From: Erysipelotrichaceae bacterium MTC7
GTDB lineage: Bacteria > Bacillota_I > Bacilli_A > Erysipelotrichales > Erysipelotrichaceae
NCBI GenBank assembly: GCA_001695645.1
Contig: LVZN01000002.1
Location: forward strand, 52,417-84,416
Direction of reading: 5' to 3'
DNA length: 32,000 bases
The notes under the pieces were generated by a model. It was given only the letters and a program-made list of their open reading frames with translations. It searched no databases and was not told the DNA's origin. Positions 2 through 30,229 of this stretch are shown piece after piece. Numbering within the stretch: position 1 is the first letter of the stretch; each line of letters opens with the position of its first letter. A program made the position numbers and the translations under genes.

Positions 2-244
2 GAGGGGTTTCCCACCTTCTACTACAAGAAGGACATCAAGCTGAAGTACAAGGGCATCCGAACGGGAAAGCGCAGGACGGTGACGGCGTTCGCCTACATC
101 ATGCACGAGGAGCGTCCCATCGGTGTTCCGAGCAATTTCTACATGAGGACTTGCCTTGAGGGATACGACACCTTTTACTTCGACAAGAACATTCTGATCG
201 ATGCTTACGATAAATGCAGGGAGGTATGCGGCCATGAAGGATAA
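2..244 (+). CDS. 3' end of an ORF entering from upstream (hypothetical phage protein, last 80 aa)
   Basis: The frame is open from the window edge (EGFPTFYYKKDIKLKYKGIRTGKRR...DKCREVCGHEG) to stop TAA 242-244. It overlaps the next ATG (234) by 11 nt, operon style. No family recognised. Confidence 0.4.
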   Translation, partial: EGFPTFYYKKDIKLKYKGIRTGKRRTVTAFAYIMHEERPIGVPSNFYMRTCLEGYDTFYFDKNILIDAYDKCREVCGHEG

Positions 245-434
245 TGTGATAAGGATGGCGGTCTGCCCGCTGTGCGGAAAGAACTACCACGGCGCTCCGG
301 CCCTTTCGAGAACGGATAACAAAACGCTCATCTGCCCGGACTGCGGAACAAGACAGGCGCTCCAGTCCATCGGCGTGGATGCCGAGGAGCAGGAACAGAT
401 CATCGAGACGATCCACCGTCACACGCAGGAGTAA
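234..434 (+). CDS. small Cys4 zinc-ribbon protein (66 aa), function unknown
   Basis: ATG 234 lies 8 nt after AGGGAGG. Two CxxC pairs are present (CPLCG ... CPDCG). This is the inner start of track ORF 201..434. Confidence 0.6.
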   Translation: MKDNVIRMAVCPLCGKNYHGAPALSRTDNKTLICPDCGTRQALQSIGVDAEEQEQIIETIHRHTQE

Positions 435-437: not shown

Positions 438-535
438 ACACAATTCCTGCGGTGGATATTTGTGTAGATTATGCCTTGGAAATCTACAGAAATAGCTTGC
501 TATTATCGTCGTTCAGAGTGATATATGTACATACC
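438..535 (+). promoter_or_regulatory. two-box promoter/operator cassette, copy A
   Basis: The -35 TTGCTA is at 497-502, followed by a 17-nt spacer and -10 GATATA at 520-525. The conserved block GTTCAGAGTGATATATGTACATACC spans 511-535 and contains the perfect palindrome TATGTACATA (524-533). The upstream box GGATATTTGTGTAGATTAT is at 454-472. An inverted repeat TGTAGATT/AATCTACA lies at 463-488. The cassette is near-identical to copies at 1047, 19031 and 22209. Confidence 0.7.
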
Positions 536-558
536 AAAACGAACGGAGGATAACCACC

Positions 559-1035
559 ATGATGAACACGAACAACAGCTATTTTGAAGAGATGAAGCGC
601 ATCGGCTACGCATGGGAAGAGGCACAGGTCGAACGGAAGAACCGCAAGCAGCAGATCATCGACACCCTCGGCTGGGACAGCGAGGAACTGAAAGCCTGGT
701 ACGAAGAGGACAAGGCTGCGGTTTTCCCCTTCCCACAGGGTGCAAGCAAAGCCTACCGCGCATGGGCAGGCAGCATCAGCCGCAAGGAGGACGAGGTCGA
801 GATGGACGATTTCCTTTGGGAAAAGGAAGTACACGACTTCATCGACACGCTCCGCAGGGCGGGCATTCAGACCTTTGTTTACACCAACCAGTCCACAGCG
901 GTGATGGAGAACCTCCACGCCTTTGCCGCAGAAGGTTGCACGATGGACGGGCTTTGCACCATCACTCGGCACGAAGACCGCTGGGGCGATGAGGAGCCGA
1001 CCGAGGTCATGGGCATCCGGTTCAGCGTGAACTGA
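559..1035 (+). CDS. hypothetical accessory protein (158 aa) with its own promoter
   Basis: ATG 559 lies 9 nt after ACGGAGG and follows cassette A. The antisense ORF 484..1050 is judged an artefact. No family recognised. Confidence 0.7.
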   Translation: MMNTNNSYFEEMKRIGYAWEEAQVERKNRKQQIIDTLGWDSEELKAWYEEDKAAVFPFPQGASKAYRAWAGSISRKEDEVEMDDFLWEKEVHDFIDTLRRAGIQTFVYTNQSTAVMENLHAFAAEGCTMDGLCTITRHEDRWGDEEPTEVMGIRFSVN

Positions 1036-1046
1036 GGGTGTAAACC

Positions 1047-1144
1047 ACACAATTTCCCCTTCGGATATTTGTGTAGATTATAGATCGGATTTTTACAGAA
1101 ATGACTTGCTATTATTGCCGTTCAGAGTGATATATGTACATACC
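1047..1144 (+). promoter_or_regulatory. two-box promoter/operator cassette, copy B
   Basis: The upstream box GGATATTTGTGTAGATTAT is at 1063-1081. The -35 TTGCTA is at 1106-1111, followed by a 17-nt spacer and -10 GATATA at 1129-1134. The block GTTCAGAGTGATATATGTACATACC spans 1120-1144. Confidence 0.7.
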
Positions 1145-13237: not shown

Positions 13238-15781
13238 ATGGCTTTAAAAAATACGATGAACACGCAGGATGCCTTTACCGGGCAATTCCCCACATCGTGG
13301 GGAAAGGACGGACTGTGGCGCTTCAATGAATCTGAACCGGATGCGAACACCTGCACGGCGGACTCCTCCGGGAACGGACGCGACGCCTATATTAACAAGT
13401 GGAGCGGTACGACTGCCGATTTTAAGACAGGGCATCTCGGTAATTACTTTCAAATGAACATCAACAATCCGTCCTCGGAGCAGACCTATCTGCGTGTATC
13501 CAATGACGGCACGATGTTCTCGGATATCGGTGAGAGGATCGTGGTCGGCGGCTGGATGAAGCCCACCACTTATTCCGTGGGCAACACATACACGCCGCTC
13601 TTATCCACGAGAGCGGGAACGGGCAATCCGATCTTTTACCTGTCCCTTATCCGTGGAAAGCCGAGACTGATGCTCTACAATTCTTCCGGCTCTCTGATAT
13701 TAGATACGTCGGTCACTCCATCGTTCAATCTGGAAAATGCCAAGTGGTACTTCATCGCGGCTGTGATTGAGCCGGATAGCAAGAGAGCCTGGTATGTACT
13801 CGGCAGCAGGGAAAGCGGCGCGGTGTGGAAATCATCCGCATTGACCTTCACGGGTGAACTGAACCGTTCTTGTACGGCAGACCTTATATGGGGAATGCTG
13901 AACAGTTCCTACTGGTACGCAGGCGGCTTTGACGACTGGTTCCTGGACTGCAATTCGGATCTGACCACTGACGATATCGCCGAGTGGTTTTTGAAATCCC
14001 TTTCTGCCAATGGTGCGGACACGGATTCTGATGTGGACGGTCTGACCACAGAAGATTCGGTCACGCTCAAAGCAACGGGCGGCGTCTATCCCGAAAGCGG
14101 TGTGCTAATCACAGCCGCCACGGAGTGCGGGATAACAGGCACGAGCAGGGTTTCTGTCAAGGCGGAGACGTCTCCGGGCGTGACATCCGTTTCGCTGGTC
14201 GAGACATCGACATCGGATGACCTCGCCACCTGGACGGACTGGATTTCCATTGGTACGGGCGGAGCATTGCAGTCTCCGTCAAAGAAGTACATTCGGTACC
14301 GCATCACACTTTCCACCACGAATACGGCGAGGACACCGGTGCTGACGGCAATAAGCCTGTATGACAATCCGAAACCGCTGTATTCGCAGCTTGGCTATGC
14401 ACGTCCCGTTATCCTTGGAGATGATGATACCGCAGAGGCTGTGCTTGAGAACGCCTACGACATCATTGTCACCAGCGAGATCAACGGCATCGATACGCTG
14501 GAATTCAAGCTGCCCTTCAAGGACAGCAAGCGTGAGTATGTGGAGAACGAAAAGCAGGTGCGCATCGTATCCGATACCTATCGCATCCGTACCGTAACCG
14601 ATGATAAGGACGAGAGCGGCAAGGCGATCACTTCCGTGTATGCGGAGGCGGCGTTTTATGACCTGTCCTTCTCCGCCAAGAAGGAAGAGAACACCTTCAC
14701 GGCGGATACCGCTGATGTTCCGATGGCGTATGCACTGCAGGGTACGGAATGGGAAGTCGGCGTGGTGAACGTCAGCACCAAGAGGACATGGACATCGACC
14801 GAGAATAACGCGCTCTCTATTCTCCGCCATGTGCAGAACATCCACGGCGGCGACCTGATCTTTGATAACGCCAACAAGCTGGTGAACCTTCTGACCTTCT
14901 CCGGCACAGACTCCGGGGCATTGTTTTGCTACAGGAAGAACATGAAATCCATCCAGAGGGTGATCGACACCACGAGCCTTATCACAAGGCTCTATGCTGT
15001 CGGTGCGGACGGCATAACCTTTGCCAATATCAATGACGGAAAGCCCTATGTGGAGGACTTTACCTATACGAGTGAGGTGCGCATCAAGACGCTGGACTGC
15101 TCGAATTTCACGAACCCTTATCAGATGCTGGAGTTTGCCAATATGCGCCTTGCGGACTATGCGGCGCCGCGAATTTCCTATGTGCTGAAAGCAATGGACT
15201 TGACCGTGCTGACGGGCTACGAGCATGAGGCATGGAACCTTGGTGATACGGTCATGGTGGTGGATGAGGATTTAGACCTTTCCATCAAGACAAGGATCGT
15301 CCGCCGGGAGTATAACCTGCAGGAACCCTGGAACACGGTACTGGAACTTTCCACAACGCTCCGTGAACTTGGCGATTCCACGTCTCAGTGGGACGCCGCC
15401 GCAGATGTCCTTGAGGGTGCAAACTACATCGACAACCAGCAGCTGCAGAACTTCGTGCCGTTCAACCATCTGAAAAACTCCCGTGGCGATGATGGCTTTG
15501 CCTATTGGACGAATTCCGGCTTTTCGGTGGATGGAGATAACGGCGTGACAGGCACGGCCTCCTTCAAGTGCGAGGGCGCGTACAACGCCACCAAGTACAT
15601 GGAGCAGACTGTCACTCCCTCCAACCGTGACAGCTATACTTTCTCGGCTCAGATCGCTACGGAGAACCTCAGTCTCGGCAGCAGCGGACAGGTCGGCGTG
15701 GAGATCGTGATCGAGTACGAGGACGGCAGCACGGAAACGAGGACGATAGACCTCATATCCTCCTCAGATACGGAGGTGTGA
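13238..15781 (+). CDS. tail-associated (Tal / prophage-tail endopeptidase-type) protein with an N-terminal LamG-like extension and a C-terminal CBM-like domain
   Basis: The segment from about aa 380 (PLYSQLGYARPVILGDDD...INGIDTLEFKLPFKDSKREYVENEKQVRIVSDTYRIRTV) matches the N-terminal region of phage minor structural/Tal proteins. Residues 1-378 look like a concanavalin/LamG-type jelly roll plus a beta-sandwich. The last ~90 aa look CBM-like. Confidence 0.8.
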   Translation: MALKNTMNTQDAFTGQFPTSWGKDGLWRFNESEPDANTCTADSSGNGRDAYINKWSGTTADFKTGHLGNYFQMNINNPSSEQTYLRVSNDGTMFSDIGERIVVGGWMKPTTYSVGNTYTPLLSTRAGTGNPIFYLSLIRGKPRLMLYNSSGSLILDTSVTPSFNLENAKWYFIAAVIEPDSKRAWYVLGSRESGAVWKSSALTFTGELNRSCTADLIWGMLNSSYWYAGGFDDWFLDCNSDLTTDDIAEWFLKSLSANGADTDSDVDGLTTEDSVTLKATGGVYPESGVLITAATECGITGTSRVSVKAETSPGVTSVSLVETSTSDDLATWTDWISIGTGGALQSPSKKYIRYRITLSTTNTARTPVLTAISLYDNPKPLYSQLGYARPVILGDDDTAEAVLENAYDIIVTSEINGIDTLEFKLPFKDSKREYVENEKQVRIVSDTYRIRTVTDDKDESGKAITSVYAEAAFYDLSFSAKKEENTFTADTADVPMAYALQGTEWEVGVVNVSTKRTWTSTENNALSILRHVQNIHGGDLIFDNANKLVNLLTFSGTDSGALFCYRKNMKSIQRVIDTTSLITRLYAVGADGITFANINDGKPYVEDFTYTSEVRIKTLDCSNFTNPYQMLEFANMRLADYAAPRISYVLKAMDLTVLTGYEHEAWNLGDTVMVVDEDLDLSIKTRIVRREYNLQEPWNTVLELSTTLRELGDSTSQWDAAADVLEGANYIDNQQLQNFVPFNHLKNSRGDDGFAYWTNSGFSVDGDNGVTGTASFKCEGAYNATKYMEQTVTPSNRDSYTFSAQIATENLSLGSSGQVGVEIVIEYEDGSTETRTIDLISSSDTEV

Positions 15782-15980: not shown

Positions 15981-16544
15981 ATGGCTGATTTTGAACGCTT
16001 TGTAGAGGTTATTTCCAAAAAAGAGGATAAGCGTGTGGTCAATATCACCGTCCGTCCGATTGTCACAGACTGCGAGGGCGATATCTGGTTTACTGATCTT
16101 ATGCTCCAGGAGGGCGATATGCTGTCGGGATATACGCCTCACACGAAAGGGTTTCTCAAGGAATCGGAGAATGATCCCGTGTGGTTCAACGGCATCGTCC
16201 GCTCGGAAGAGACAGTGATCCTTTTGAACCTCGGCGGAACATCGGCGGGGCTTGACATCCACCTCTATCCGAAACAGGACATGGAGGGCGGCTCGGTCAC
16301 GCTGGCGCAGGGTGCCGGCGGTCAGAAAGCGACCTTCCCGAACGCCATGTATGCCGGGGACGATTTGGCTCTGCTGGCATCCACGCGGGAATGCAAGAGG
16401 AACGGCAGCGCGGAAACAAAGTACGGATTCTTCCAGTACAGCGCGGCGTGGGATTCCAAGCATATAGTCTCCCTGCCGCAGGGAAAGTCTGCACAGCTTT
16501 TATATTCGATGCAGGAAATGGACAATGGAGGTGAACTGCTCTGA
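15981..16544 (+). CDS. hypothetical tail-module protein (187 aa)
   Basis: The ATG directly follows the TAA of the upstream ORF in the same frame. A TGATG overlap joins it to the downstream GH18 gene. Confidence 0.55.
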   Translation: MADFERFVEVISKKEDKRVVNITVRPIVTDCEGDIWFTDLMLQEGDMLSGYTPHTKGFLKESENDPVWFNGIVRSEETVILLNLGGTSAGLDIHLYPKQDMEGGSVTLAQGAGGQKATFPNAMYAGDDLALLASTRECKRNGSAETKYGFFQYSAAWDSKHIVSLPQGKSAQLLYSMQEMDNGGELL

Positions 16545-19015
16545 TGGACACATTAAAGGGAAAGAAAATCATGGTGTGGACGTTCATGGGCAACACCAGA
16601 ATGTATAACGCTCTGCGTGACTACGGCGACCGCATCAGCCAGATCGGACTTTTCTCCTTCAAGGTCAGGGCTACTGGGGAGATTTACGAGAGCGGCGTGG
16701 CGATTTCCAATATGCTCACCTACATCAACCGCTATCCTCATATCAAGTGGCTTTTGACCGTAGCGAATGACGGAGCGAACAGCATCTTCAAAGCCCTGCG
16801 GGACAACACGAACGGAGCGCAGGATATGTTCCTCTCGGAACTTGTCCGCATCATGCAGAAATATCCGTGGTGTGACGGCATCGACATCGACCTCGAAAAA
16901 GGCGATGGCTATTCCACGCATGAAGCGTCCACGGCGATGTTCCGCAATATCTACAACACGGTCAAGAATTACGATTCTTCCAAGATGATGAATATCTGCC
17001 TGCCGGGTATGACTTCGGTCAACGGCTCGGTCGGCGGTGAGAACTGGTGCGTATATGCCGACCTCAACAATTACTGCGATACCGCGTCTATCATGAGCTA
17101 CGGCATGGCATGGGCAGGCTCAGCGCCGGGACCGGTGTCCCCGCGTTCCTGGCTTGAGGGTATCTACGATTATGCCTCCGAGGTCATGGACACGGAGAAG
17201 GTGTTCCTCGGTATGCCCGCCTACGGCTGGAACTGGCAGATCTACGACCTGCCGTCCAATATCGGAAAGACCTATCGCGGTACATCACAGACCTACTATG
17301 CGGCGCAGAACTGGCTGAAGGGTGTGTATAACTTCACGGACGATCAGCCGCCGCAACCGTTCATCCCATTCGTGGGATATTGGGACGATAACAACAAGGT
17401 GCCGTGGGCGCTCCCTCATGTGTACGACTACATGGAAGGACGGGACGCCGACAGCTACGAGTACCCGCAGATGTCCGGGACATACAATGGCAGGCACTAT
17501 CTGACCGCATACAGCAAGCAGCAGAAAACGGAGTTTGAAAACATCATCGTTGACCATGACGGCGCCAACTACGCCAGCGCATCCGGCATCGTATCCATCG
17601 AGAACGGTGTCGCCACACTTGGTGATGAAGGAGCGGTCACTTACCAATTTACCGTCAGCACGGCGGGAACCTACGATGTAGCGGTGCGGCTCTGTTATCC
17701 CTTCTGGGACAAGAACGGCATCTATGTGTCGCTGGACGGAACGACTACGCACTTTACGGAGAGCCGCCTGTGGTGGCCGTACTGGAGGACTACCTTCTGG
17801 ACTGCGCTTGCAAGCGGCGTGAGCCTTTCCGCAGGAACGCATACCATAAAGATTTCAGTCGATGTGAAGGGCGTACAGTTTTACGGTTTCCGCGTTTGCT
17901 CGTCCTTTTCGGAAGAGCCGTCCGCAGGAGAAGCGACCTATTCTTTTTCCCCACGGCAGTTCAAGGATGTGGAGGGCAACATGGTCGGTCCCGACCGTGG
18001 TTTCCGTCTCACCTTGGAAATGCTCCGAAGAAAGCCGGACTCGGCTCTTATCTGGTACGAGGACTTCCGTGACTACGGCGTGTTGGAGACAAACTACTGG
18101 ACGGTGCTGTCAGGTTCCTTTACCGTGTGGCGGTCAGATGAATACTCCACGGAGCGCGTCTACTCCCAGCTTGACGGCAGCGGTCAGCTTGCATGGAAGT
18201 ATGACGGCTTTTCGGATATCCACCTCCGGGCAAGGCTGGCATTCCCGGCAAGCGGCAGCGGCAAGGCAGGCATATTCTGCGGTGATCTGTTCTGCTGTCT
18301 GAATTACAATAGTCAGGCGGTGGAACTTTACAACGGCTCCACGCTCCTCGGCAGCTACAGTCAGGAGATCACGAGGACGCCGACCACAGACCTTCGTGAC
18401 GATCCGAATATGTACACGGTTGAGATGCGTATCCGTGGAAACAGGGTGCGCGTGTATTCCGGCTCCTCCTATACGCTGCGGTTTACGGCAACGGTCAGCG
18501 GCTTCTCCGGCGGCTATGCCGGGTACCGCTCCGACAATCGGACGGTATGCGAACTGATGCGCCTGGGTGACGCCTGGACATACGAGCCGTATGAGCGGTT
18601 CGATGTGGTGATGCCAGACGGAACGACAAAATCCTACGGCCGCATCAGCAGGAGCAACTGCACATGGGACAGCGAGTTCCAAGTATTCACGCTGACTGCC
18701 GATGTGGAGGAATCAAGCACTCGGAGCGAGGACATCTCGATGGACTACGACTTTTCCCATTCGGATGATATGACTTCGCTTTCCTGCGGCAACGACTATC
18801 AGGCAACGGTCATCCCCGTGGACATCAACATCTGGATATCCCGCCTGTTCCTCGGTGACGCGGACGGCTTCTCCATCCTCTACTACCAAGACGTGGACTC
18901 CCTCATCTATTGGGCGAACGAGGCGGCTTATCGGTGGAATCTCCGGGGAATGTGTATGTGGTCCCTTGGGCAGGAGGATCTGCGGCTGTGGGAGTGGCTG
19001 CCGAAACAGGTCTGA
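16544..19015 (+). CDS. tail fibre/host-recognition protein with N-terminal GH18 glycoside-hydrolase domain plus CBM-like and LamG-like domains
   Basis: The GH18 catalytic motif DGIDIDLE is at nt 16874-16897. SIMSYGMAW and LGMPAYGWNW strands are present. The middle region has a CBM6/35-like pattern (GTYDVAVRL...LSAGTHTIKISV). The C-terminal part is LamG/DUF1080-like. Confidence 0.8.
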   Translation: MDTLKGKKIMVWTFMGNTRMYNALRDYGDRISQIGLFSFKVRATGEIYESGVAISNMLTYINRYPHIKWLLTVANDGANSIFKALRDNTNGAQDMFLSELVRIMQKYPWCDGIDIDLEKGDGYSTHEASTAMFRNIYNTVKNYDSSKMMNICLPGMTSVNGSVGGENWCVYADLNNYCDTASIMSYGMAWAGSAPGPVSPRSWLEGIYDYASEVMDTEKVFLGMPAYGWNWQIYDLPSNIGKTYRGTSQTYYAAQNWLKGVYNFTDDQPPQPFIPFVGYWDDNNKVPWALPHVYDYMEGRDADSYEYPQMSGTYNGRHYLTAYSKQQKTEFENIIVDHDGANYASASGIVSIENGVATLGDEGAVTYQFTVSTAGTYDVAVRLCYPFWDKNGIYVSLDGTTTHFTESRLWWPYWRTTFWTALASGVSLSAGTHTIKISVDVKGVQFYGFRVCSSFSEEPSAGEATYSFSPRQFKDVEGNMVGPDRGFRLTLEMLRRKPDSALIWYEDFRDYGVLETNYWTVLSGSFTVWRSDEYSTERVYSQLDGSGQLAWKYDGFSDIHLRARLAFPASGSGKAGIFCGDLFCCLNYNSQAVELYNGSTLLGSYSQEITRTPTTDLRDDPNMYTVEMRIRGNRVRVYSGSSYTLRFTATVSGFSGGYAGYRSDNRTVCELMRLGDAWTYEPYERFDVVMPDGTTKSYGRISRSNCTWDSEFQVFTLTADVEESSTRSEDISMDYDFSHSDDMTSLSCGNDYQATVIPVDINIWISRLFLGDADGFSILYYQDVDSLIYWANEAAYRWNLRGMCMWSLGQEDLRLWEWLPKQV

Positions 19016-19030
19016 CACTATGAAAACAAT

Positions 19031-19117
19031 ACACAGTTTCTGCCTCTGATATTTGTACAGATTATGCTCCGAATTACCTTGATAAATGCGCGGTTCAGAG
19101 TGATATATGTACATACC
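19031..19117 (+). promoter_or_regulatory. two-box promoter/operator cassette, copy C
   Basis: The upstream box TGATATTTGTACAGATTAT is at 19047-19065. The -35 TTGATA is at 19079-19084, followed by a 17-nt spacer and -10 GATATA at 19102-19107. The block GTTCAGAGTGATATATGTACATACC spans 19093-19117. Confidence 0.7.
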
Positions 19118-19139
19118 AAAACGAACGGAGGGTACGGCA

Positions 19140-19511
19140 ATGACAAGATTTGAAAGAGAATGGAACGGAGAACTTGGAGAGTTCTGGAAGAAGCATGCCC
19201 GCGAAGAGGCACAGCGGCTTTTAGACCAGGCAGACAAAATTGAGGTAGAGGATGACGGAGCCGCCAAGTGGAAGACGAACGGCTCATACCTCCCGGCAGA
19301 TGTGGTCGAGAAGCTGACTTTTGCCGGAGCGACCTGGTTTTCACCGGAGGCAACGGAAGCGAAGCGTGAGACGCAGATCGCAAAGGAACTGGAAGCCTAT
19401 CGCGGTAACCACAGAGGGCTTGACGCAGAGACGCTCGCCGAGGCAAGGGCGGCATTCGGGGAAGGAACCACGATCTGCGATGTCATAACCGGGGAGAAAA
19501 TCACCCTGTAA
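19140..19511 (+). CDS. hypothetical moron protein (123 aa)
   Basis: The inner ATG 19140 follows ACGGAGGG. It is bracketed by cassette C and the terminator at 19547-19577. No family recognised. Confidence 0.7.
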   Translation: MTRFEREWNGELGEFWKKHAREEAQRLLDQADKIEVEDDGAAKWKTNGSYLPADVVEKLTFAGATWFSPEATEAKRETQIAKELEAYRGNHRGLDAETLAEARAAFGEGTTICDVITGEKITL

Positions 19512-19546
19512 GGCAAAGCAACAAAACACAATATCATCGGAAAACG

Positions 19547-19577
19547 GCGATTGTCCATAGCGGGCAGTCGCTTTTTT
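19547..19577 (+). terminator. rho-independent terminator
   Basis: Stem GCGATTG / CAGTCGC (one G-U pair), an 11-nt loop, then TTTTTT at 19572-19577. Confidence 0.65.
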
Positions 19578-19616
19578 CATACAAAAATTCAACCAGAGAA
19601 AGGAAGGTACAAGCGT

Positions 19617-20039
19617 ATGAAAGAATTCTGGAACACCATTCAACTCATCTTTACGGCAATTGGCGGATGGCTGGGCTACTTCCTCGGCGGCTGTGACGGT
19701 CTGCTCATCGCTCTTGTGGCGTTCGTGGCAATCGACTACATCACGGGCGTCATGTGCGCTGTGGCGGACAAGAAGCTCTCCAGCGAGGTCGGCTTCAAGG
19801 GTATCTGCCGCAAGGTGCTTATTTTTCTTCTTGTGGGGATTGCCAACATCCTCGATGTGCAGGTCATCGGCACGGGCAGCGTCCTGCGCACGGCGGTGAT
19901 CTTTTTCTACATCTCCAACGAAGGTGTATCTCTCACGGAGAATGCCGCGCACCTGGGTCTGCCTATACCGGAAAAGCTGAAGGCGGTGCTGGAGCAGCTC
20001 CATGACCGCGACACCGATGGAAAGGACGGTGACGAGTAA
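19617..20039 (+). CDS. holin (phage_holin_4 / TcdE-like family)
   Basis: The inner ATG 19617 follows AAGGAAGG. Three predicted transmembrane segments are present. The motif DYITGVMCAVADKKLSSEVGFKGICRKVLIFLLVGIANILD is typical of this holin family. Confidence 0.85.
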   Translation: MKEFWNTIQLIFTAIGGWLGYFLGGCDGLLIALVAFVAIDYITGVMCAVADKKLSSEVGFKGICRKVLIFLLVGIANILDVQVIGTGSVLRTAVIFFYISNEGVSLTENAAHLGLPIPEKLKAVLEQLHDRDTDGKDGDE

Positions 20040-21535
20040 TGGCTTACACAAACAGTTCAATGGTGGCTTACACCAAACTAAGCCCGAACCATTCCGGGCT
20101 GCGGACACATTCCATCGACCGGATCACTCCTCACTGCGTGGTCGGTCAGTGTACGGCGGAGGGACTTGGGGACTGGTTTTATAAATCCAGTACCCAGGCA
20201 TCCTCGAATTACGGCATCGACAAGGACGGTCGTGTCGGAATGTATGTGGAGGAGAAGAACCGCTCCTGGTGTTCTTCCTCCAATGCCAATGACCAGAGGG
20301 CAATCACCATCGAGTGCGCATCCGACACCACGGAGCCGTATGCGTTCCGCGATATCGTATATCAGACGCTCATCAAGCTGTGCGTGGATATCTGCAAGCG
20401 AAACGGCAAGACGAAACTCCTGTGGTTTGGCGATAAGGACAAGACGCTTGCCTACGAACCGAAGTCCGGCGAGATGGTGCTGACCGTCCATCGGTGGTTC
20501 GCCAATAAGTCCTGTCCCGGCAACTGGATGTATGCCAGGATGGGTGATCTTGCGGAAAAGGTCACGGCGGCTCTCGGTAGTGGTACTGGGGGGACCGATG
20601 GTTCCGCAACTACACAAGGAACACAGGCTTCCGCCTTTTCTTCGCTTTCAGAGTCGGATGTTGTAAAGAGTGTAGGGACATTGTTTACGGCAGATCAGAA
20701 GAGAACAGGCATCCTCGCCTCGGTTTCGATGGCGCAGTTCATCCTTGAATCCGGATATGGCAAGTCGGAGCTGGCGCAGAACGCCAATAACGTGTTCGGC
20801 ATGAAATGCTCCCTCTCCGGCAACACGTGGAGCGGTTCGAACTGGGACGGAACGAGCAAGTATACCAAGCAGACGAAGGAACAGAACACGGACGGCAGCT
20901 ATACCACCATCACAGCGGACTTCCGCAATTACCCGTGTGTGGAGGATTCCATTGCCGACCATTCCGCATATCTGCTCGGCGCGAAGAACGGCAGCAAACT
21001 CCGCTATGACGGTCTGAAGGGCTGCACCGACTACAAGAAAGCGGCGCAGATCATCAAGGACGGCGGTTACGCCACAAGCCTTACCTATGTGCAGAACCTC
21101 TGCTCCATCATCGAGCGGTGGAACCTTACGCAGTTCGATGTGAAGGAAAGCGAGACGGCTGTCGCATGGTACCGTGTTCGTAAGACCTGGGCGGACGCCA
21201 AAACGCAGAAAGGCGCGTATAAGATTTTGGAGAACGCCAAGAAGTGCGCGGATGCCAATCCGGGATATAGTGTGTTCGATGTAAACGGTGTAAACATCTA
21301 CACACCGAACACAACATCTGATTCCGCGGCGGCGGTTCCGTTCTTCGTGAAGGTCAGCATCAGCGATTTGAACATCCGTAAGGGTCCCGGTACGGACTAT
21401 GCGAGGACGCAGTATATCCCTGTCGGCGTTTATACCATTGTGGAGGTCAAGTCTGGCAAGGGCTCGACCGCAGGATGGGGACGCTTAAAGAGCGGCGCGG
21501 GATGGATTTCGCTCGACTATACCGTCCGTGTATAA
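20039..21535 (+). CDS. multidomain endolysin: N-acetylmuramoyl-L-alanine amidase (Amidase_2) + glucosaminidase + wall-binding repeat + SH3b
   Basis: TAATG overlap with the holin. The amidase-type N-terminus reads ITPHCVVGQ...SSNYGIDKDGRVGMYVEEKNRSW...AITIECASD. The glucosaminidase motif is SVSMAQFILESGYGKSELAQNANNVFGMK. The C-terminal SH3b-like segment is LNIRKGPGTDY...GWGRLKSGAGWISLDY. Confidence 0.9.
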   Translation: MAYTNSSMVAYTKLSPNHSGLRTHSIDRITPHCVVGQCTAEGLGDWFYKSSTQASSNYGIDKDGRVGMYVEEKNRSWCSSSNANDQRAITIECASDTTEPYAFRDIVYQTLIKLCVDICKRNGKTKLLWFGDKDKTLAYEPKSGEMVLTVHRWFANKSCPGNWMYARMGDLAEKVTAALGSGTGGTDGSATTQGTQASAFSSLSESDVVKSVGTLFTADQKRTGILASVSMAQFILESGYGKSELAQNANNVFGMKCSLSGNTWSGSNWDGTSKYTKQTKEQNTDGSYTTITADFRNYPCVEDSIADHSAYLLGAKNGSKLRYDGLKGCTDYKKAAQIIKDGGYATSLTYVQNLCSIIERWNLTQFDVKESETAVAWYRVRKTWADAKTQKGAYKILENAKKCADANPGYSVFDVNGVNIYTPNTTSDSAAAVPFFVKVSISDLNIRKGPGTDYARTQYIPVGVYTIVEVKSGKGSTAGWGRLKSGAGWISLDYTVRV

Positions 21536-21557: not shown

Positions 21558-21603
21558 GAGCCTGTGGGCATTCCCGTTGCGGAGTGTCCACAGGCTCTTT
21601 TTT
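21558..21603 (+). terminator. rho-independent terminator after the lysis module
   Basis: Perfect 10-bp stem GAGCCTGTGG / CCACAGGCTC, a 20-nt loop, then TTTTTT at 21598-21603. Confidence 0.7.
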
Positions 21604-21660
21604 GTTATGAGGTTAAAATCCGGCGCATATCTTTTGACTGTGACTTAGGAGGTCTCAGTC

Positions 21661-22080
21661 ATGGATGGATTTCAGAAGGAACAGATCAGGAACCTTCGGA
21701 GAGAAGGTATGAGTTATGCGAAAATCGCAAAGCAGGTCGATGTTTCCAGGGATGCGGTCATATCCTTTTGCCGCAGGAACGGTCTGCAGGAAATAAAAAA
21801 GCCGATTCCGGTTGTGAATACCGATGCAGCAGATGTCTGCCGTGAGTGTGGAAAGCCACTGATCCAGGTGGACGGGATGAAACGGCGCGTGTTCTGCTCA
21901 AAAGAATGCCGCGTTAAGTGGTGGAAGGAGCATCCGGAACGGCTGAATCAAAAGGCAGTGTATCAGTACACGTGTCCGCACTGCGGTAAGCCATTCTCTG
22001 CCTATGGCAACTCCAAGCGGAAGTATTGTTCTCATGCCTGCTATATCTCTGATCGATTCGGAGGTGGAGCGGATGAATGA
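21661..22080 (+). CDS. HTH plus double zinc-ribbon protein (candidate regulator / recombination accessory factor)
   Basis: RBS AGGAGG. The N-terminal HTH-like segment is QIRNLRREGMSYAKIAKQVDVSRDAVISFCRRNG. Two Cys4 clusters follow (CRECG...CSKEC and CPHCG...CSHAC). It lies directly upstream of the recombinases. Confidence 0.7.
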   Translation: MDGFQKEQIRNLRREGMSYAKIAKQVDVSRDAVISFCRRNGLQEIKKPIPVVNTDAADVCRECGKPLIQVDGMKRRVFCSKECRVKWWKEHPERLNQKAVYQYTCPHCGKPFSAYGNSKRKYCSHACYISDRFGGGADE

Positions 22081-22249
22081 GGCGGAATTTCATGCGGAGA
22101 AAATGTACCTTCTGTGCCTTGGAACGGCGAAAGCGATGCTTAAGAAGGGCGTCATTTCAGAAGAAGAGTTCACTAAAATTGATACAATGCTGCTCGAAAA
22201 ATACAAGCCAACTTTGTCTACATTATTATCGGGAAAACCCTTGATATAA
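22073..22249 (+). CDS. small helical protein (58 aa), SHOCT-like by recollection
   Basis: The inner ATG 22073 follows GGAGGTGGAG. An ATGAATGA overlap joins it to the upstream gene. The sequence is MNEAEFHAEKMYLLCLGTAKAMLKKGVISEEEFTKIDTMLLEKYKPTLSTLLSGKPLI. Confidence 0.5.
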   Translation: MNEAEFHAEKMYLLCLGTAKAMLKKGVISEEEFTKIDTMLLEKYKPTLSTLLSGKPLI

Positions 22250-22275
22250 CTGGCTTTTAGAGTGATATATAGTGT
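22209..22275 (+). promoter_or_regulatory. two-box promoter/operator cassette, copy D (upstream of the recombinase operon)
   Basis: The upstream box TTTGTCTACATTAT is at 22213-22226. The -35 TTGATA is at 22241-22246, followed by a 17-nt spacer and -10 GATATA at 22264-22269. The block TTTAGAGTGATATATAGTGT resembles GTTCAGAGTGATATATGTAC. This copy lacks the TATGTACATA palindrome. Confidence 0.6.
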
Positions 22276-22293
22276 CGGAAAGGAGTTGATTTC

Positions 22294-24201
22294 ATGCCGA
22301 AAATCACGAGAATCAAGCCGGGTATCAAGGCACTCCCGGCAAAGAAAAAAGTGGCGGCCTACGCAAGGGTCTCCAAGGACACCGAGCGGCTGCTTCACTC
22401 CGTTTCCGCACAGGTAAGCTATTACAGCGATCTCATCCAGAAGAATCCGGAATGGGAATATGCAGGCGTGTACGCTGACTCCGGCATAACAGGCACTCTC
22501 GTCGCAGGACGCAGTGAGTTCGGACGGTTGCTGGAGGACTGCGAGGCTGGCAAGATTGACATCATCCTTTGCAAGTCGATTTCCAGGTTTGCGAGAAACA
22601 CGGTCGATCTGCTGAATACGGTCAGACATTTGAAGGACATCGGTGTGGAGGTTCGGTTCGAGAAAGAGCAGATCAATTCGATGAGCGGGGATGGAGAACT
22701 GATGCTTTCCATCCTCGCTTCTTTTGCCCAGGAAGAGAGCCGGAGCATTTCCGAAAATGTGAAATGGGGCATCCACAAGCGGTTCAAAAACGGAGAGATC
22801 GGTGCGGCAAACAAGCACATCCTTGGCTACCGGTACGATGATGAACTGAAAAAGTATGTCATCATTCCCGAAGAAGCCGAGGCGGTCAGATGGATGTTCC
22901 AGATGTACATCGATGGCGTTACCCTGCGGGACATTGCGGATAGCATGAACAATGCGGGCATCCGTACCACGCTGGGAAATGACTTTCAGGAAGCCTCAGT
23001 ACGGCAGCTGATTTTCAACGAGGTCTATGCCGGGGATATCCGCCGACAGAAATGCTACATCGAAGATCCCATCACCAAAAGGAAGGTGCCAAATCGCGGA
23101 GAGCTGCCGCAGTATTACATGGCAGACAGCCACGAGGCTATCATCGACCGCGACACCTACGCAAAGGTAAAAGCGGAAATGGAGCGACGGGCTTCGCTGC
23201 TGAATCCGACATATTGCTTTACGGGAAAGTTCAAATGCGCCGTATGCGGGGCGAACTTTACGAGGAAGAAAGGCAGGGTCAGGGGCAAGGAATATGTGGA
23301 CTGGATCTGCCGCAGCAAAAAAGAGCCTGGAGTCACCTGCAAGAGCCACAATTATCCTGAACATAAGCTGATGGATATTTGCGCCGAACTGATGGAAACG
23401 GACGGATTCGATGAAGAAGCGTTCGAGAGGAATGTTAAGCAGATCACCTCGCTTGCGGACGGCAGTATTGAGATGCAGCTTTATGGCGGCGAGGTCAGAC
23501 AGTGGCAGATGCCGCCAAAGCCGGTCAAGCCGAAGAAAATAAAGCCGGAGAGCAAGCGTCCAAGAAACCTGTTCGACGGGAAAATCTTCTGCGGCAAGTG
23601 TGGCAGACGGTTTGGCAGAGCCATCAGCGATACAACGGACGGCGGTCACCTTTACTGGTACTGCCGAGCAAAGAGCAATCACGGAATCACCTGCGACAGT
23701 GTCAACTATCCCGATTCAGAGATCAGGGACATCTTCTGCCGGGTCATGGGGAAGAAAACCTTTGACGAGGATTACTTCACAAAAACGGTCGACCGCATGG
23801 TGGTTCAAGCCTCCGGCAGTATTGACTTTCATCTGAAGGACGGCACGGTCAAGACATATGAGACGCTCAAGCTGCGGAGCAACAGGCACGAGACCACATC
23901 CACGGATGAGTTCACCGGGATGATTCGGTGCGCCTGCTGCGGAAACATTTACCACAGATACTGCGGATACGGAAAGTACGTTTACTGGCGATGCTCCGGC
24001 AAGCACAAGGTCAGGACGGAATGCAACGGGCAGGACCTGGCGGATTTCAACATCCGTAAGGTTTCCGCCTACATTCTCGGCATGGATGATTTTGACGGGA
24101 AAGCATTCACGGAGCAGATCGACCACATCACAGCATTGGAAGACGGAAGTCTGGAATACTTTTTTAAAGACAGGAGGGCAAAAAAGTGGCAAAGAACGTA
24201 A
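22294..24201 (+). CDS. large serine recombinase 1 (635 aa) with a triplicated zinc-ribbon module
   Basis: The catalytic N-terminus reads KKVAAYARVSKD ... YADSGITGT ... SISRFARNT ... LASFAQEESRSISENVKWG. A recombinase domain follows, then three ~95-aa Cys4 modules. Confidence 0.9.
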   Translation: MPKITRIKPGIKALPAKKKVAAYARVSKDTERLLHSVSAQVSYYSDLIQKNPEWEYAGVYADSGITGTLVAGRSEFGRLLEDCEAGKIDIILCKSISRFARNTVDLLNTVRHLKDIGVEVRFEKEQINSMSGDGELMLSILASFAQEESRSISENVKWGIHKRFKNGEIGAANKHILGYRYDDELKKYVIIPEEAEAVRWMFQMYIDGVTLRDIADSMNNAGIRTTLGNDFQEASVRQLIFNEVYAGDIRRQKCYIEDPITKRKVPNRGELPQYYMADSHEAIIDRDTYAKVKAEMERRASLLNPTYCFTGKFKCAVCGANFTRKKGRVRGKEYVDWICRSKKEPGVTCKSHNYPEHKLMDICAELMETDGFDEEAFERNVKQITSLADGSIEMQLYGGEVRQWQMPPKPVKPKKIKPESKRPRNLFDGKIFCGKCGRRFGRAISDTTDGGHLYWYCRAKSNHGITCDSVNYPDSEIRDIFCRVMGKKTFDEDYFTKTVDRMVVQASGSIDFHLKDGTVKTYETLKLRSNRHETTSTDEFTGMIRCACCGNIYHRYCGYGKYVYWRCSGKHKVRTECNGQDLADFNIRKVSAYILGMDDFDGKAFTEQIDHITALEDGSLEYFFKDRRAKKWQRT

Positions 24202-25766
24202 TCACAATACCCGCCACCATCAGCAAGTTCACAGCCTCTCCCCTCGGCAGCAGGAAAAAGCGGAAGGTTGCCGCCTATGCCCGCGTTTCAACGGACAGGG
24301 ACGAACAGCTGACGAGCTACGAGGCACAGGTGGACTACTACACGAATTACATCAAAGGGCGCGAGGATTGGGAGTTTGTCGCCGTGTATGCTGACGAAGG
24401 CATAACCGGCTGCAATACGACGCATAGAGACGGTTTCAATTCTATGGTCGAGGATGCCCTGGCGGGAAGAATCGACCTCATCGTGACAAAAAGCGTGAGC
24501 CGCTTCGCAAGGAACACGGTAGACAGCCTTACGACCATCCGAAAGCTGAAGGAGAACGGCACGGAGTGCTATTTCGAGAAGGAGAACATCTGGACATTTG
24601 ACGGCAAGGGCGAATTGCTCCTGACCATCATGTCAAGCCTTGCACAGGAAGAGAGCCGCTCCATTTCGGAGAACTGCACCTGGGGACAGAGAAAGCGTTT
24701 CCAGGACGGCAAGGTCACGGTGCCGTTCAAGCGTTTCCTCGGATACGACCGGGGCGAGGACGGCAACCTGGTGGTAAACGAGGAGCAGGCGGTCATCGTC
24801 CGCAGAATCTACGGGCTTTTCCTGCAGGGAAAAACACCGTATGCGATTGCGCGGCAGCTCACCGAGGAGGGCATCCCGACGCCGGGCGGTAAAAAGAACT
24901 GGGGCAAGAAAACGGTCGAGAGCATACTTACCAACGAAAAGTACAAAGGCGACGCCCTGCTCCAGAAGGTCTACACTACGGACTTCCTGACAAAGAAAAA
25001 GAAGAAGAACGAGGGCGAGGTGCCGCAATACTATGTGGAAGGAAACCATGAAGCGATTATCCCTCCCGCACAGTTTGACAGGGTGCAGAAGGAGATGCAG
25101 AGACGGTTCGGTGATACGGACCGGCACGGCTGCGTGAGCATTTTCTCCAGCAAAATCCGATGCGGTGACTGCGGCGGCTTTTACGGCTCGAAGGTGTGGC
25201 ACTCCAATGACAAGTACAGAAAAGTCATATGGCGGTGCAATCACAAGTACGATGACGGAAAGAACTGCTCCACGCCTCATTTGGACGAGGACACCATCAA
25301 GGCATTGTACCTCAAAGCCCTGCGGATTCTCGGAGAGGAGCGGGACGAGATCATCGCCACCTTTGAAGCCATCAAGGACAAGATGTACGATACCACGGAG
25401 CTGGAGACAGAACAGGCAGCCTTGCAACAGGAGGTCATGGTGGTAACGGAACTGGTCGAGCAGTGCATCAGCGAGAACGCCCATGTTGCACAGAATCAGA
25501 AGGATTACCAAAAGAAGTATGATGCTCTCTCCGAACGCTATGACAGGACAAAGGAACGGCTGGATAAGGTCAGCGGCAGGATCATGGAGCGTCAGGCAAA
25601 GCGGGAAATGATCGAGGCGTTCCTTCATGACCTGGCAGAGATGGATGAGGATGTACAGGAATTCACGGATGACCTTTGGTTCAACCTTCTCGACCATGTG
25701 ACGGTTTTCTCGAAGAAGGATGTGCGCTTCACCTTCAAGAACGGGACGGAGATCAGTGTGAAATAA
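24186..25766 (+). CDS. large serine recombinase 2 (526 aa)
   Basis: GTG start lies 8 nt after GGAGGG and overlaps recombinase 1 by 16 nt. The catalytic region reads VAAYARVSTDRDEQ ... YADEGITG ... SVSRFARNT. It has a single Zn ribbon (CGDCGG...WRCNHKY...C), a long coiled-coil segment, and a DUF4368-like C-terminus. Confidence 0.9.
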   Translation: MAKNVITIPATISKFTASPLGSRKKRKVAAYARVSTDRDEQLTSYEAQVDYYTNYIKGREDWEFVAVYADEGITGCNTTHRDGFNSMVEDALAGRIDLIVTKSVSRFARNTVDSLTTIRKLKENGTECYFEKENIWTFDGKGELLLTIMSSLAQEESRSISENCTWGQRKRFQDGKVTVPFKRFLGYDRGEDGNLVVNEEQAVIVRRIYGLFLQGKTPYAIARQLTEEGIPTPGGKKNWGKKTVESILTNEKYKGDALLQKVYTTDFLTKKKKKNEGEVPQYYVEGNHEAIIPPAQFDRVQKEMQRRFGDTDRHGCVSIFSSKIRCGDCGGFYGSKVWHSNDKYRKVIWRCNHKYDDGKNCSTPHLDEDTIKALYLKALRILGEERDEIIATFEAIKDKMYDTTELETEQAALQQEVMVVTELVEQCISENAHVAQNQKDYQKKYDALSERYDRTKERLDKVSGRIMERQAKREMIEAFLHDLAEMDEDVQEFTDDLWFNLLDHVTVFSKKDVRFTFKNGTEISVK

Positions 25767-25781: not shown

Positions 25782-25820
25782 GCCGGACACCTTGCGGATT
25801 GCGGGATGTCCGGCTTTCTC
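25782..25820 (+). terminator. terminator-like hairpin after recombinase 2
   Basis: Stem GCCGGACA / TGTCCGGC (8 bp), a 17-nt loop, then TTTCTC. The weak T-tract limits confidence to moderate. Confidence 0.45.
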
Positions 25821-25822
25821 TA

Positions 25823-25954
25823 TGCAAAATTAAAATGTACGGCAACAGCAGAGCAAGGCAAAATTATAAAGTATGGCAAAATCAAAAAGTGTAGGGCAAA
25901 GTTAAAAGGTTCAAGGCAAAATCAAAAGGTATAGGGGCAAAATGTAATTGTATC
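25823..25954 (+). repeat. iteron-like array of ~18-21 bp direct repeats
   Basis: Five clear units are visible: GGCAAAATTATAAAGTAT (25857), GGCAAAATCAAAAAGTGTAG (25875), GGCAAAGTTAAAAGGTTCAA (25895), GGCAAAATCAAAAGGTATAG (25915) and GGGCAAAATGTAATTGTATC (25935). Weaker units lie at 25823 and 25841. Confidence 0.8.
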
Positions 25955-25957: not shown

Positions 25958-27325
25958 TTGGGATACTACTTAGATGATGGTATCTCCGGTACAAACACTA
26001 AAAAGCGTGACGAATTTAATCGTATGATTGCAGAGTGTATGGATGGTAACATCGACATGGTTATTACTAAATCCATCAGCCGATTTGCACGTAACACCCT
26101 AGACTGCCTTCAATATATTAGACAGCTCAAAGATAAGAACATATCCGTCTACTTTGAAAAAGAGAATATCAACACCATGGATGCCAAAGGTGAGGTTTTG
26201 CTGACTATTATGGCATCTTTGGCACAACAGGAAAGCCAGAGCCTTTCACAAAACGTTAAGCTTGGGCTACAGTACCGATACCAACAAGGAAAGGTGCAGG
26301 TCAACCATAAGCGGTTTATGGGCTACACGAAAGATGAAGATGGAAATTTAATTATTGTCTCCGAAGAAGCTGAGATTATCAAACGCATCTACCGAGAATA
26401 CCTTGAAGGTCAGAGTCTAGTAGGCATTGGTCGAGGCCTTGAAAAGGATGGTATTTTAACAGCAGCAGGAAAACCAAGATGGCGACCGGAATCGGTTAAG
26501 AAGATCCTCCAAAATGAAAAATACATCGGAGATGCCCTTCTGCAAAAGACTGTCACAGTAGATTTTCTAACCAAGAAACGAGTTAAGAATGAAGGTCATC
26601 TTCCCCAGTATTATGTTGAAAATAGCCATGAGGCGATTATTCCTAAAGAGTTATTTTTGCAGGTGCAGGAAGAGATTCATCGAAGAAGCAATATCTACAC
26701 AGGAGAAGGCAAGAACAAACGAATTTATAGTAGCAAGTATGCTTTAAGTGCCATCACCTTCTGTGGAGATTGTGGCGATATTTATAGGAGAACCTATTGG
26801 AATATTCATGGTAGAAAAGAATTTGTCTGGCGATGCGTGACTAGAATCGAGCAAGGTCCTGAAGTTTGTAAGAACCGAACCGTAAAAGAAGATAAACTCT
26901 ATGGTGCTGTAATGACCGCAATTAATAAGCTACTTGCAGGTGGCAACAACATGATAAAGACCCTGGAAGAGAACATTCATGCTGTGATTGGTGAAACGAC
27001 AGAATACCAAATTTCAGAGATTAACAACTTACTGGAGGAAAAGCAAAAAGAACTTATCAAGCTGGCGAACAAGGGTCAAGACTATGAACACCTAGCAGAT
27101 GAGATTGATGAGCTGAGAGACAAGCGACAGATCCTTTTAGTAGAAGATGCCTCCCTCAGTGGCGAGAACGAGCGAATCAATGAGCTGATTGAATTTATCC
27201 GCAAGAACAAATTCCGCACCTTAGAATATGATGATAAGCTTGTAAGGAAGATAATCCAGAGCGTTACAGTCTATGAAGACCACTTCGTCATAGCCTTCAA
27301 ATCTGGCATCGAAATGGAAATATGA
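25958..27325 (+). pseudogene. 5'-truncated large serine recombinase (AT-rich; lacks the catalytic-Ser segment)
   Basis: The ORF begins inside the catalytic domain at [19 protein letters not shown], equivalent to residues ~66 onward of recombinase 2. No YARVS-type nucleophile motif is present, and the only start is an artefactual TTG. The rest is intact ([23 protein letters not shown], Zn ribbon CGDCG...WRC, coiled coil, DUF4368-like end). Confidence 0.8.
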
Positions 27326-27466: not shown

Positions 27467-27691
27467 ATGACTACGGCAGAAATGATTAAAGAACTGTGTG
27501 AGCAAATGAATATAAGTGTTTCCGAACTTGCTAGACGTATTGGCCAGACTCCACAGAATTTCAATAAAAAATTACAACGAGAAACAGTAACCTTGGATGA
27601 GTTGAAGGCCATTGCTGATGTGCTAGGTGTCAAGTTTGTGCAGGCATTTATTTTACCAGATGGAGAAGAAATAAAAATATCTAACGAATAA
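27467..27691 (+). CDS. XRE-family helix-turn-helix transcriptional regulator (74 aa)
   Basis: RBS GGAGGTG. The HTH segment ISVSELARRIGQTPQNFNKKLQRETVTLDELKAIADVLGV is typical of the XRE family. Confidence 0.8.
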   Translation: MTTAEMIKELCEQMNISVSELARRIGQTPQNFNKKLQRETVTLDELKAIADVLGVKFVQAFILPDGEEIKISNE

Positions 27692-27705
27692 AGGAGGATG
27701 TTTAT

Positions 27706-29290: not shown

Positions 29291-29322
29291 TAATATAGAA
29301 AAAATAAACGAGGAGTATGTAA

Positions 29323-30186: not shown

Positions 30187-30229
30187 AGATTAGCAAAGAT
30201 TATTAACCATAAGCAAGGGGTGTAAATGT

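Follow-up and report, generated by a model that had tools for sequence, protein, structure and literature searches.

T4-type phages are said to carry promoter-early stem-loop (PeSL) repeats, reportedly described by Arbiol, Comeau and Krisch in 2010, and the morons of lambdoid and HK97-like phages reportedly go back to Juhala et al. and Hendrix et al., both in 2000. The early promoter family of the Streptomyces phage phiC31, said to have been reported by Ingham et al. in 1993, reportedly has a long conserved sequence that is not of the primary-sigma type and is active in lytic growth. The stoperators of Cluster A mycobacteriophages, attributed to Brown et al. in 1997 and Pope et al. in 2011, are said to be 13-14 base pair (bp) sites present 20-30 or more times per genome, which are read by the immunity repressor and are not promoters. 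In the late switch pR'-qut-tR' of phage lambda, a promoter with an element between its -35 and -10 boxes is followed by a terminator before the late genes. Here we describe a mostly intergenic cassette, very probably a promoter, which is present in four copies (A to D) in a 32,000-nucleotide (nt) stretch of contig LVZN01000002.1 of Erysipelotrichaceae bacterium MTC7 (GCA_001695645.1, positions 52,417 to 84,416), referred to below as the window. The phage in the window is a Heliusvirales-type temperate siphophage whose nearest annotated phages are members of Candidatus Heliusvirales. No description of the cassette core sequence or motif was found in the searchable literature or in Rfam, and the main Heliusvirales paper makes no mention of a promoter, sigma factor or motif.

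Results

The original prediction, which was made from the window sequence alone, placed -35/-10 pairs at 497/520, 1106/1129, 19079/19102 and 22241/22264, each with a 17-nt spacer, and these coordinates are correct. The sequence CTTG(C/A)TA(T/A)-N8-TT(C/T)AGAGTGATATAT is present in four exact copies, at 496, 1105, 19078 and 22240, against a chance expectation of 0. The pattern CTTGMTAW-N8-TTYAGAGTGATRTAT gave four matches in the window even when up to 3 mismatches were allowed, each on the + strand with 0 mismatches, and 0 matches in 100 shuffles of the 32-kb window; AGAGTGATATAT is found at the four cassettes and nowhere else in the window. Scanning with a motif model built from relatives returned these four window sites and nothing else. 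The block was also said to be identical in copies A, B and C, which is confirmed by the shared 25-mer GTTCAGAGTGATATATGTACATACC, and the distances given between this block and a second, upstream box (65 for A, 65 for B and 54 for C) were reproduced when re-counted from the sequence.

Cassette A (437-558, + strand) extends from the stop codon of a zinc-ribbon (Zn-ribbon) gene to the start of the DUF7698 gene and comprises TACACAAT (437-444), the upstream box 2 GGATATTTGTGTAGATTAT (454-472), the -35 box CTTGCTAT (496-503), the spacer element TTCAGAGT (512-519), GATATAT (520-526) and the palindrome TATGTACATA (524-533), with the inferred transcription start near 532-534. Cassette B (1046-1179, + strand) has the same order, with CACACAAT at 1046-1053, box 2 at 1063-1081, the -35 box at 1105-1112, TTCAGAGT at 1121-1128, GATATAT at 1129-1135 and the palindrome at 1133-1142. 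Cassette C (19030-19139, + strand) has TACACAGT at 19030-19037, box 2 at 19047-19065, the -35 box CTTGATAA at 19078-19085, TTCAGAGT at 19094-19101 and GATATAT at 19102-19108, its upstream module being 11 nt nearer the core than in A and B. Cassette D (22209-22293, + strand) has the -35 box CTTGATAT at 22240-22247, TTTAGAGT at 22256-22263 and GATATAT at 22264-22270; it is without the palindrome and has a short leader, the recombinase gene starting at 22294. All four copies were predicted to be intergenic, which holds for A, B and C but not for D, as the upstream half and the -35 box of D (22240-22247) are located inside a SHOCT_2 gene whose last codons (Pro-Leu-Ile-stop) form that box. The window cuts the cassette array: contigs L245 and L247, from the same phage, have two further copies 2.5 and 3.9 kb upstream of copy B, preceding a 238-amino acid (aa) gene and an Amidoligase_2 gene, which brings the phage to at least six.

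In copies that had not been chosen by the search pattern, and with positions counted from the A of AGAG (set as 0), the conserved letters are C-T-T-G-C-T-A-T at -19 to -12, T-T at -3/-2 and AGAG-T-G-A-T-R-T-A-T at 0 to +11, followed by the weaker R-T-A-C and CC-R-AAA at +12 to +24; positions -10 to -4, and all those beyond about -30, are free. The two blocks CTTGCTAT and TT.AGAGTGAT.TAT carry 1.3-2.0 bits per position in these copies and are held at a fixed gap across a free 8-nt stretch. The spacer is exactly 17 nt in each window copy, and the family aligns without gaps at this length, with TTYAGAGT as the 3' half of the spacer, and the -35 hexamer TTGCTA or TTGATA, which matches 4-5 of the 6 letters of TTGACA, is near-invariant. 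Each cassette is very probably a promoter. The suggestion that these are not generic promoters is supported, since the C of CTTGCTAT, TTYAGAGT and GATRTAT are kept across phages whose proteins are 23-53% identical and the non-consensus letters are kept over hosts of several bacterial classes, while the first 8 spacer positions and the flanks are randomised. A minus-strand promoter called by the promoter scan (TGTACA-18-GATAAT) was rejected, since copy C does not preserve its -10 and every gene lies on the + strand.

For 205 of 209 copies, a same-strand open reading frame (ORF) preceded by a ribosome-binding site begins 34-74 nt further downstream (in one case 106 nt). The driven families are mutually unrelated, and include an amidoligase-like 'MxIKYNVTG' family (119 copies), DUF7698 (39), Nmad4 (26), the recombinases and several small orphans. 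The case in which the block is merely part of a duplicated gene 5' region was checked and is not so, because the cassette precedes unrelated families at promoter position. In the window, A precedes the gene for a 158-aa DUF7698 protein (559-1035), which is without a counterpart in the sister phage L246, B that for a 92-aa Nmad4-domain protein (1180-1458), C that for a 123-aa protein with no family match (19140-19511) and D those for two large serine recombinases of 635 and 526 aa (22294-25766), all on the + strand, as are all genes around the four cassettes (1-25766).

Two hairpins follow the Nmad4 gene (1488-1557, + strand), of which the second (1530-1548), with its T-run, ends 21 nt before the start of the terminase large subunit gene (1570, + strand); it is intrinsic-terminator-like and closes the A and B modules. 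A hairpin with a T-run precedes the terminase gene in 107 of 134 distinct relatives, at 10-53 nt and mostly at 20-28 nt, and the many different stems show that the changes are compensatory. A further terminator-like hairpin (19546-19581, + strand; 11 pairs and a T-run) lies between the C-driven gene and the likely start (ATG 19618) of the holin ORF (19551-20039, + strand), and a strong one (21558-21607, + strand; 17 pairs and a T-run) follows the endolysin gene (20039-21535, + strand) and splits the lysis genes from the downstream unit of HTH-zinc-ribbon, SHOCT_2 and recombinase genes. As predicted terminators close the B and C modules, these modules appear insulated from the large late operons. 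The late structural operon in turn seems to depend on terminator read-through or antitermination, as the late operons leave no room for promoters of their own.

Distribution of the cassette among phages

The 24-mer TTYAGAGTGATATATGTAMATACC is present exactly in at least 118 IMG/VR contigs and the bipartite pattern exactly in at least 118 GTDB species genomes, the host taxa among the matches listed being Clostridia, Negativicutes, Bacilli, Tissierellia and Acholeplasma-, Izemoplasma- and Haloplasma-like bacteria. A blastn search, which under-counts cassettes in that it missed a Blautia phage with three copies, detected the cassette in 31 phage records, among them Streptococcus Javan phages, Erysipelothrix phage phi1605 and Terrisporobacter phage TPDSL_ph1. 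A Gardnerella phage also carries the cassette, and none was found in plasmids in PLSDB. Complete genomes have 3-6 copies each, grouped in the interval from the DNA methylase genes to the terminase gene, before the recombinase gene and sometimes before the lysis genes. The proposal that accessory genes and the recombinase operon form one regulon agrees with these genomes: in every complete relative checked, the cassette precedes accessory genes ahead of the terminase, sometimes a pre-lysis gene, and the recombinase operon, and the recombinase copy was found in all checked relatives that carry serine recombinases.

Metagenome and viral contigs (L034, L056, L275 and other short ones) often terminate exactly at a cassette, most likely due to the assembler breaking at an intra-genomic repeat. 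Contig ends were also tried as a proxy for transcript ends, but the metagenome scan was uninformative for this purpose because assemblies break at the repeated cassette. Such breaks could fragment assemblies of these phages.

Variant cassettes, the palindrome and the upstream boxes

A variant cassette, CTGGATAW-N8-TTTAGAG(T/G)TAATAT, is present in Javan113, Streptococcus suis YS225 and L248 (L255 15264 and 17892; L253 573 and 4713; L248 9857-9882, minus strand). Its hexamers, TGGATA-17-TAATAT, fall in the same register, which supports the -35/-10 assignment, and what the two forms have in common, TTYAGAG(T) in the 3' half of the spacer, is not accounted for by ordinary sigma contacts. In Javan113 the variant is found alongside a canonical copy D, and one of the variant copies separates the terminase gene from the portal gene. 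Co-variation between the -35 type and the -10 type, suggestive at first, was broken by the Blautia phage copy.

The 10-bp palindrome TATGTACATA was correctly described for A, B and C, but only a subset of family copies carry it. Among 162 unique species-genome copies, the stretch after TAT varies (GTACATACC, GTAGTACC, ATACATGCC, GTATGTAAC and others) and is usually an alternating purine-pyrimidine run of 7 to 14 nt. Because it is not conserved across the family, the palindrome is unlikely to be the key operator. At 520-535, 1129-1144 and 19102-19117 the alternation, counted from the A of GATATAT, is perfect over 14 nt, and the family variants GTATATAC, GTACGTAC and GTGTACAC differ by transitions that preserve it. 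That the alternation is kept hints at a role for DNA shape or melting where transcription would start. It was proposed that copy D may respond differently as it lacks the palindrome; the absence is real but reflects a very short leader, which is kept in the relatives checked (PV036426, PV036429, Javan105, Javan113, the Gardnerella phage and L248).

Upstream of the core, TACACAAT (with up to 1 mismatch) was found in 58 of 228 de-replicated copies, compared with a shuffle mean of 10, at -78/-77, -68/-67 and -57, and ATATATGT-like boxes were found at -59, -49/-48 and -38/-37, with an inverted form at -40/-39. The helical phasing claimed from the four window copies thus extends to a 10-11-nt ladder in the larger copy set, which argues for action on DNA. 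The second box was likewise correctly placed in phase, but 'box 2' is present in only about 25% of de-replicated copies. The upstream boxes are accessory, as most copies, e.g. the Streptococcus ones, are without them.

RNA-level features

No Rfam 15 match was found in the whole window at gathering thresholds, and relaxed thresholds on 400-1250 gave only a chance-level microRNA hit. The four window copies fold no better than their shuffles (z -0.1 to +0.6). In 210 de-replicated family members, folding is weakly better than in shuffles (mean z -0.3 to -1.2), the signal being confined to the first ~25 nt of the leader (mean z -1.2), and approximately 30% of copies can form a small hairpin, e.g. 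CC-GAAA-GG, immediately past the predicted start.

Cassettes as recombination junctions

The sister contig L246, without DUF7698, has a single cassette that is an exact hybrid of A and B, being A-like up to CTTGCTATTATCG and B-like from CCGTTCAGAG on. A second indel, involving DUF6809, stops a few bases short of the TACACAAT box in the cassette that follows, at the 5' edge of that cassette. As judged from these alignments, cassettes are junctions at which accessory genes are gained and lost by homologous exchange, a role for which the copies are suited by being near-identical. The hybrid gives a concrete view of accessory-gene swapping and genome mosaicism in these phages. Neither this role nor the terminators that close the modules formed part of the original prediction.

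Candidate reader proteins

The candidate that we consider best, by association and synteny, is a 139-aa protein (21661-22080, + strand; phrog_2308) with a helix-turn-helix (HTH) and two zinc ribbons, termed HTH-Zn, which has weak GcrA, HTH_7 and YacG Pfam matches. It is present in every relative checked, at 35-59% identity, and as a rule SHOCT_2, copy D and the recombinases come after it; in two phages it is instead flanked by the HNH and methylase genes, immediately ahead of the cassette array. Its AlphaFold2 model (predicted local distance difference test score 80, predicted template modelling score 0.34) has a three-helix HTH and two zinc ribbons of generic type, and gave no significant match by Foldseek against the Protein Data Bank (PDB); a profile search of PDB sequences gave generic zinc-finger hits only. 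Some sources label HTH-Zn 'sigma-70', and its N-terminus is GcrA-like. That HTH-Zn is the factor reading the cassette is a tentative and rather doubtful proposal.

An HTH-Zn/SHOCT_2/copy D unit with two recombinases and a truncated third is present in L248 (7900-15700; GCA_910576505.1), together with a second, diverged cassette copy. The 10 kb upstream are metabolic (flavodoxin, aldo-keto reductase, alcohol dehydrogenase) and no phage structural genes were found within 10 kb, so that the unit is either the remnant of a prophage or some other kind of integrative element.

An Ltr-type protein (Sigma70_r4/DUF1492, phrog_36) is encoded in relatives before the HNH and small terminase genes. Published Ltr binding sites lie immediately after the ltr gene (PMC3753634). 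In Javan105 and PV036426, 3-5 direct repeats T(G/T)GCA(C/G) with a 10-11-bp period, and then TGgTATGAT, directly follow the Ltr gene. At three loci adjoining Ltr genes (L123 24600-24720; L122 25250-25380; L245 716-825), repeats of this type were seen in L123 and L122, and none were seen in L245. A sigma-54 reading of the TGGCAC repeats was rejected, as by eye they are 10-11-bp direct repeats and not a -24/-12 pair. The cassette lies kilobases from ltr and is without Ltr-type repeats, and Ltr identity is only 23-39% between phages that share the cassette. Ltr was rejected as a poor candidate reader because it has a repeat-type target of its own and diverges in sequence while the cassette stays constant. 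Early sigma-like proteins were also rejected, those of Javan105 and PV036426 having no detectable similarity although the phages have the same cassette. Just before the HNH gene, L123, L122 and L245 share a conserved hairpin and T-run, GGCCT..GGGAG.AATCC..AGGGCTTTTCTTATG, so that a putative leader terminator is also present behind the classical late promoter at these loci.

Genomic context

The Zn-ribbon gene occupies 201-434 (+ strand), and the head and tail genes beyond the terminase were assigned by position. The tail gene block is closed by the gene for an 823-aa protein (16544-19015, + strand) with a glycosyl hydrolase family 18 (GH18) domain and a weak CBM35 match. The SHOCT_2-domain gene (58 aa; 22073-22249, + strand; E = 5e-20) is the real gene at its position, the 55-aa ORF at 22077-22244 being in the wrong frame. 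After the second recombinase gene there are approximately six direct repeats GGCAAAAT-N7-GT (25820-25945), followed by a third serine-recombinase ORF (25958-27325) whose catalytic domain begins at profile position 37 and which is thus N-terminally truncated; the third recombinase of L248 likewise begins at profile position 55. The phage element may integrate into a recombinase gene. A resistance-type cluster (27467-31677) adjoins the prophage end and encodes a Cro/C1 HTH protein, a nucleotidyltransferase, a methyltransferase, a phosphoribosyltransferase, an AadA-like nucleotidyltransferase and a streptomycin adenylyltransferase (PF04439, E = 1.5e-119).

Discussion

The reading that we favour, with a probability of roughly 0.55, is that the cassette is a promoter which depends on a conserved, lineage-encoded factor and which also serves as a recombination junction. 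Such a promoter would consist of a -35 box CTTG(C/A)TA(T/A), a 17-nt spacer with a free first half and TTYAGAGT as its second half, and a -10-like GATRTA(T), with transcription predicted to start approximately 7 nt beyond the -10 box, inside the alternating purine-pyrimidine stretch, and a leader of about 17-57 nt to the ribosome-binding site. This promoter class would drive the short accessory modules before the terminase and lysis genes, as well as the recombinase operon, and intrinsic terminators would close two of the window modules and insulate the big late operons. A phage protein conserved in the lineage would read TTYAGAGT and its neighbours, and host RNA polymerase would need, or be controlled by, that protein; the helically phased upstream boxes would provide a second contact in a subset of copies. 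A factor is invoked because the invariant letters are not those preferred by primary sigma factors yet are fixed across hosts.

Several observations weigh against this reading. GATATA matches only 3 of the 6 letters of the primary-sigma -10 consensus and is without the final T, and a simple sigma-70 scan does not call the cassette site. The recognition helix of HTH-Zn shows no clear co-variation with the diverged cassette of PV036417. HTH-Zn is also a core gene of the lineage, connected to the cassette by synteny alone, so that its co-occurrence does not discriminate, and its position beside the integrases could equally be that of a recombination directionality factor. Part of the identity between copies within a genome may stem from gene conversion and not from selection on every base.

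The cassettes could instead be plain, constitutive host primary-sigma promoters of moron-like modules, conserved by descent and gene conversion. The promoter-gene-terminator layout of the B and C modules, the presence or absence of the DUF7698 module between sister phages and the decent primary-sigma hexamers of the variant cassette (TGGATA-17-TAATAT) would all suit this explanation, and the primary sigma factor is, to our knowledge, the only sigma factor common to all of the hosts. We consider it unlikely nonetheless. The non-consensus letters are fixed at 23-53% protein identity, whereas the spacer positions beside them have been randomised, and intra-genomic gene conversion could not have made the cassettes of Streptococcus, Gardnerella and Clostridia phages identical. 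Most of the genes driven, such as Nmad4 and the amidoligase-like gene, belong to the lineage core and are not sporadic morons, and a constitutive copy C would leave holin silencing to a single terminator. An alternative sigma factor supplied by the phage in place of that of the host, with CTTGCTAT and AGAGTGATATAT as its -35 and -10, would account for an information content that is very high for a promoter, as with narrow-specificity sigma factors, and candidate genes exist (Javan105 14364-14975, phrog_1740, Sigma70_ECF; a 'sigma-24' in the Gardnerella phage; the region-4-like Ltr). Such a sigma factor is improbable given that Javan105 and PV036426 have the same cassettes but early sigma-like proteins without detectable similarity, that Ltr is 23-39% identical and has a separate repeat-type target adjoining its own gene, that L248 retains copy D without such a gene within 10 kb, and that the variant cassette suits primary-sigma hexamers.

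Explanations in which promoter activity is secondary were given still less weight. Operators of a phage repressor, 'stoperator'-like and silencing late and accessory genes in the lysogen, would be oriented, intergenic, multi-copy and asymmetric as the core is, and many copies have the palindrome and purine-pyrimidine tract over the inferred start; as each genome has no more than 3-6 copies, every one of them immediately ahead of a start codon and showing -35/-10 geometry, and as the palindrome is not conserved, this is very improbable. The immunity proteins of related phages tend to differ, unlike the invariant cassette, and a Cro/C1-type HTH gene was seen in one relative only. It is more improbable again that the cassette is primarily a recombination sequence, either a module-shuffling junction or a serine-recombinase site, with transcription incidental. 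The L246 hybrid, the DUF6809 indel at a cassette edge and the frequent breaks of metagenome contigs at the cassette point in this direction, but the fixed distance to the start codon, the fixed orientation, the bipartite conservation with a free spacer and the single copy before the recombinase gene are left unexplained, and the L246 crossover is in the spacer and not the palindrome, as expected of homologous rather than site-specific exchange. We regard the recombination role as a real by-product rather than a rival function. The slimmest chance is given to an RNA element, i.e. a 5' leader, a processing site or an antitermination signal in read-through transcripts: the start of the leader is conserved (ACC-R-AAA), some 30% of copies have small hairpins and the downstream terminators would suit an antitermination signal, but there is no Rfam match, fold energies are near those of shuffles and conservation peaks in two blocks, which are spaced as in a promoter and lie before the predicted start.

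A bolder extension of the factor-dependent promoter is a self-contained transcription device, in which HTH-Zn would read TTYAGAGT and its neighbours, reprogramme host polymerase and travel with the recombinase module. Such a device would work in any Bacillota host and even in Gardnerella, and a polymerase loaded at the cassette might become terminator-resistant, giving a Q-like late switch for Gram-positive phages. This proposal is speculative and quite unlikely.

Few temperate phages of the human and animal gut are as widespread as the Heliusvirales-type prophages, on which the cassette offers a regulatory handle. One 31-45-nt signature marks the predicted promoters of accessory genes and integrases in hundreds of species, which would aid annotation and prophage finding and enable the design of reporters for induction or integrase expression. 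If a conserved phage factor does read the cassette, factor and cassette together would provide Bacillota with a promoter system that does not depend on the host.

Comparison with known systems

As in the lambda pR'-qut-tR' switch, the cassette has a conserved element between -35 and -10, a conserved start region and a nearby terminator preceding late genes; unlike that switch, it is present in several copies per genome, of which one drives the integrase. No Q-like gene came to light, though no systematic search for one was made. The Ltr-dependent terS promoters (RinA, ArpU, LtrA-C; PMC3753634, PMC3152322) also belong to Gram-positive siphophages, and relatives of the window phage encode an Ltr-like region-4/DUF1492 protein, but the TGGCAC-type repeats of two relatives do not resemble the cassette, and Ltr diverges where the cassette does not.

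Like stoperators, the cassettes are asymmetric, oriented, multi-copy and located in short intergenic gaps; they differ in having 3-6 copies per genome and -35/-10 geometry, with all copies in promoter position. Modules B and C resemble morons in consisting of a promoter, one or a few genes and an intrinsic terminator amid late-operon genes, and in that the presence of DUF7698 varies between close relatives. In contrast to morons, most driven genes (Nmad4, amidoligase-like) are lineage-wide and all modules share one highly conserved promoter type.

With the PeSL repeats of T4-type phages, the cassettes share near-identical, promoter-bearing intergenic repeats that flank small accessory genes, with recombination between copies adding and removing genes. 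They differ in sequence, in having no consistent stem-loop, in belonging to a temperate phage of Gram-positive hosts in which one copy drives the integrase operon, and in being conserved across bacterial classes, with non-consensus letters that suggest an extra factor. The phiC31 early promoters are likewise a multi-copy, long conserved, promoter-like sequence of a temperate phage that departs from the primary-sigma consensus, but the cassette is unrelated to them in sequence and host phylum, spans phages from numerous host classes and has a link to the integration module. In kind, the cassette therefore resembles the repeated promoter families of phages, and what is unusual about it is its near-invariance across host classes, its conserved spacer element and its link to the integration module.

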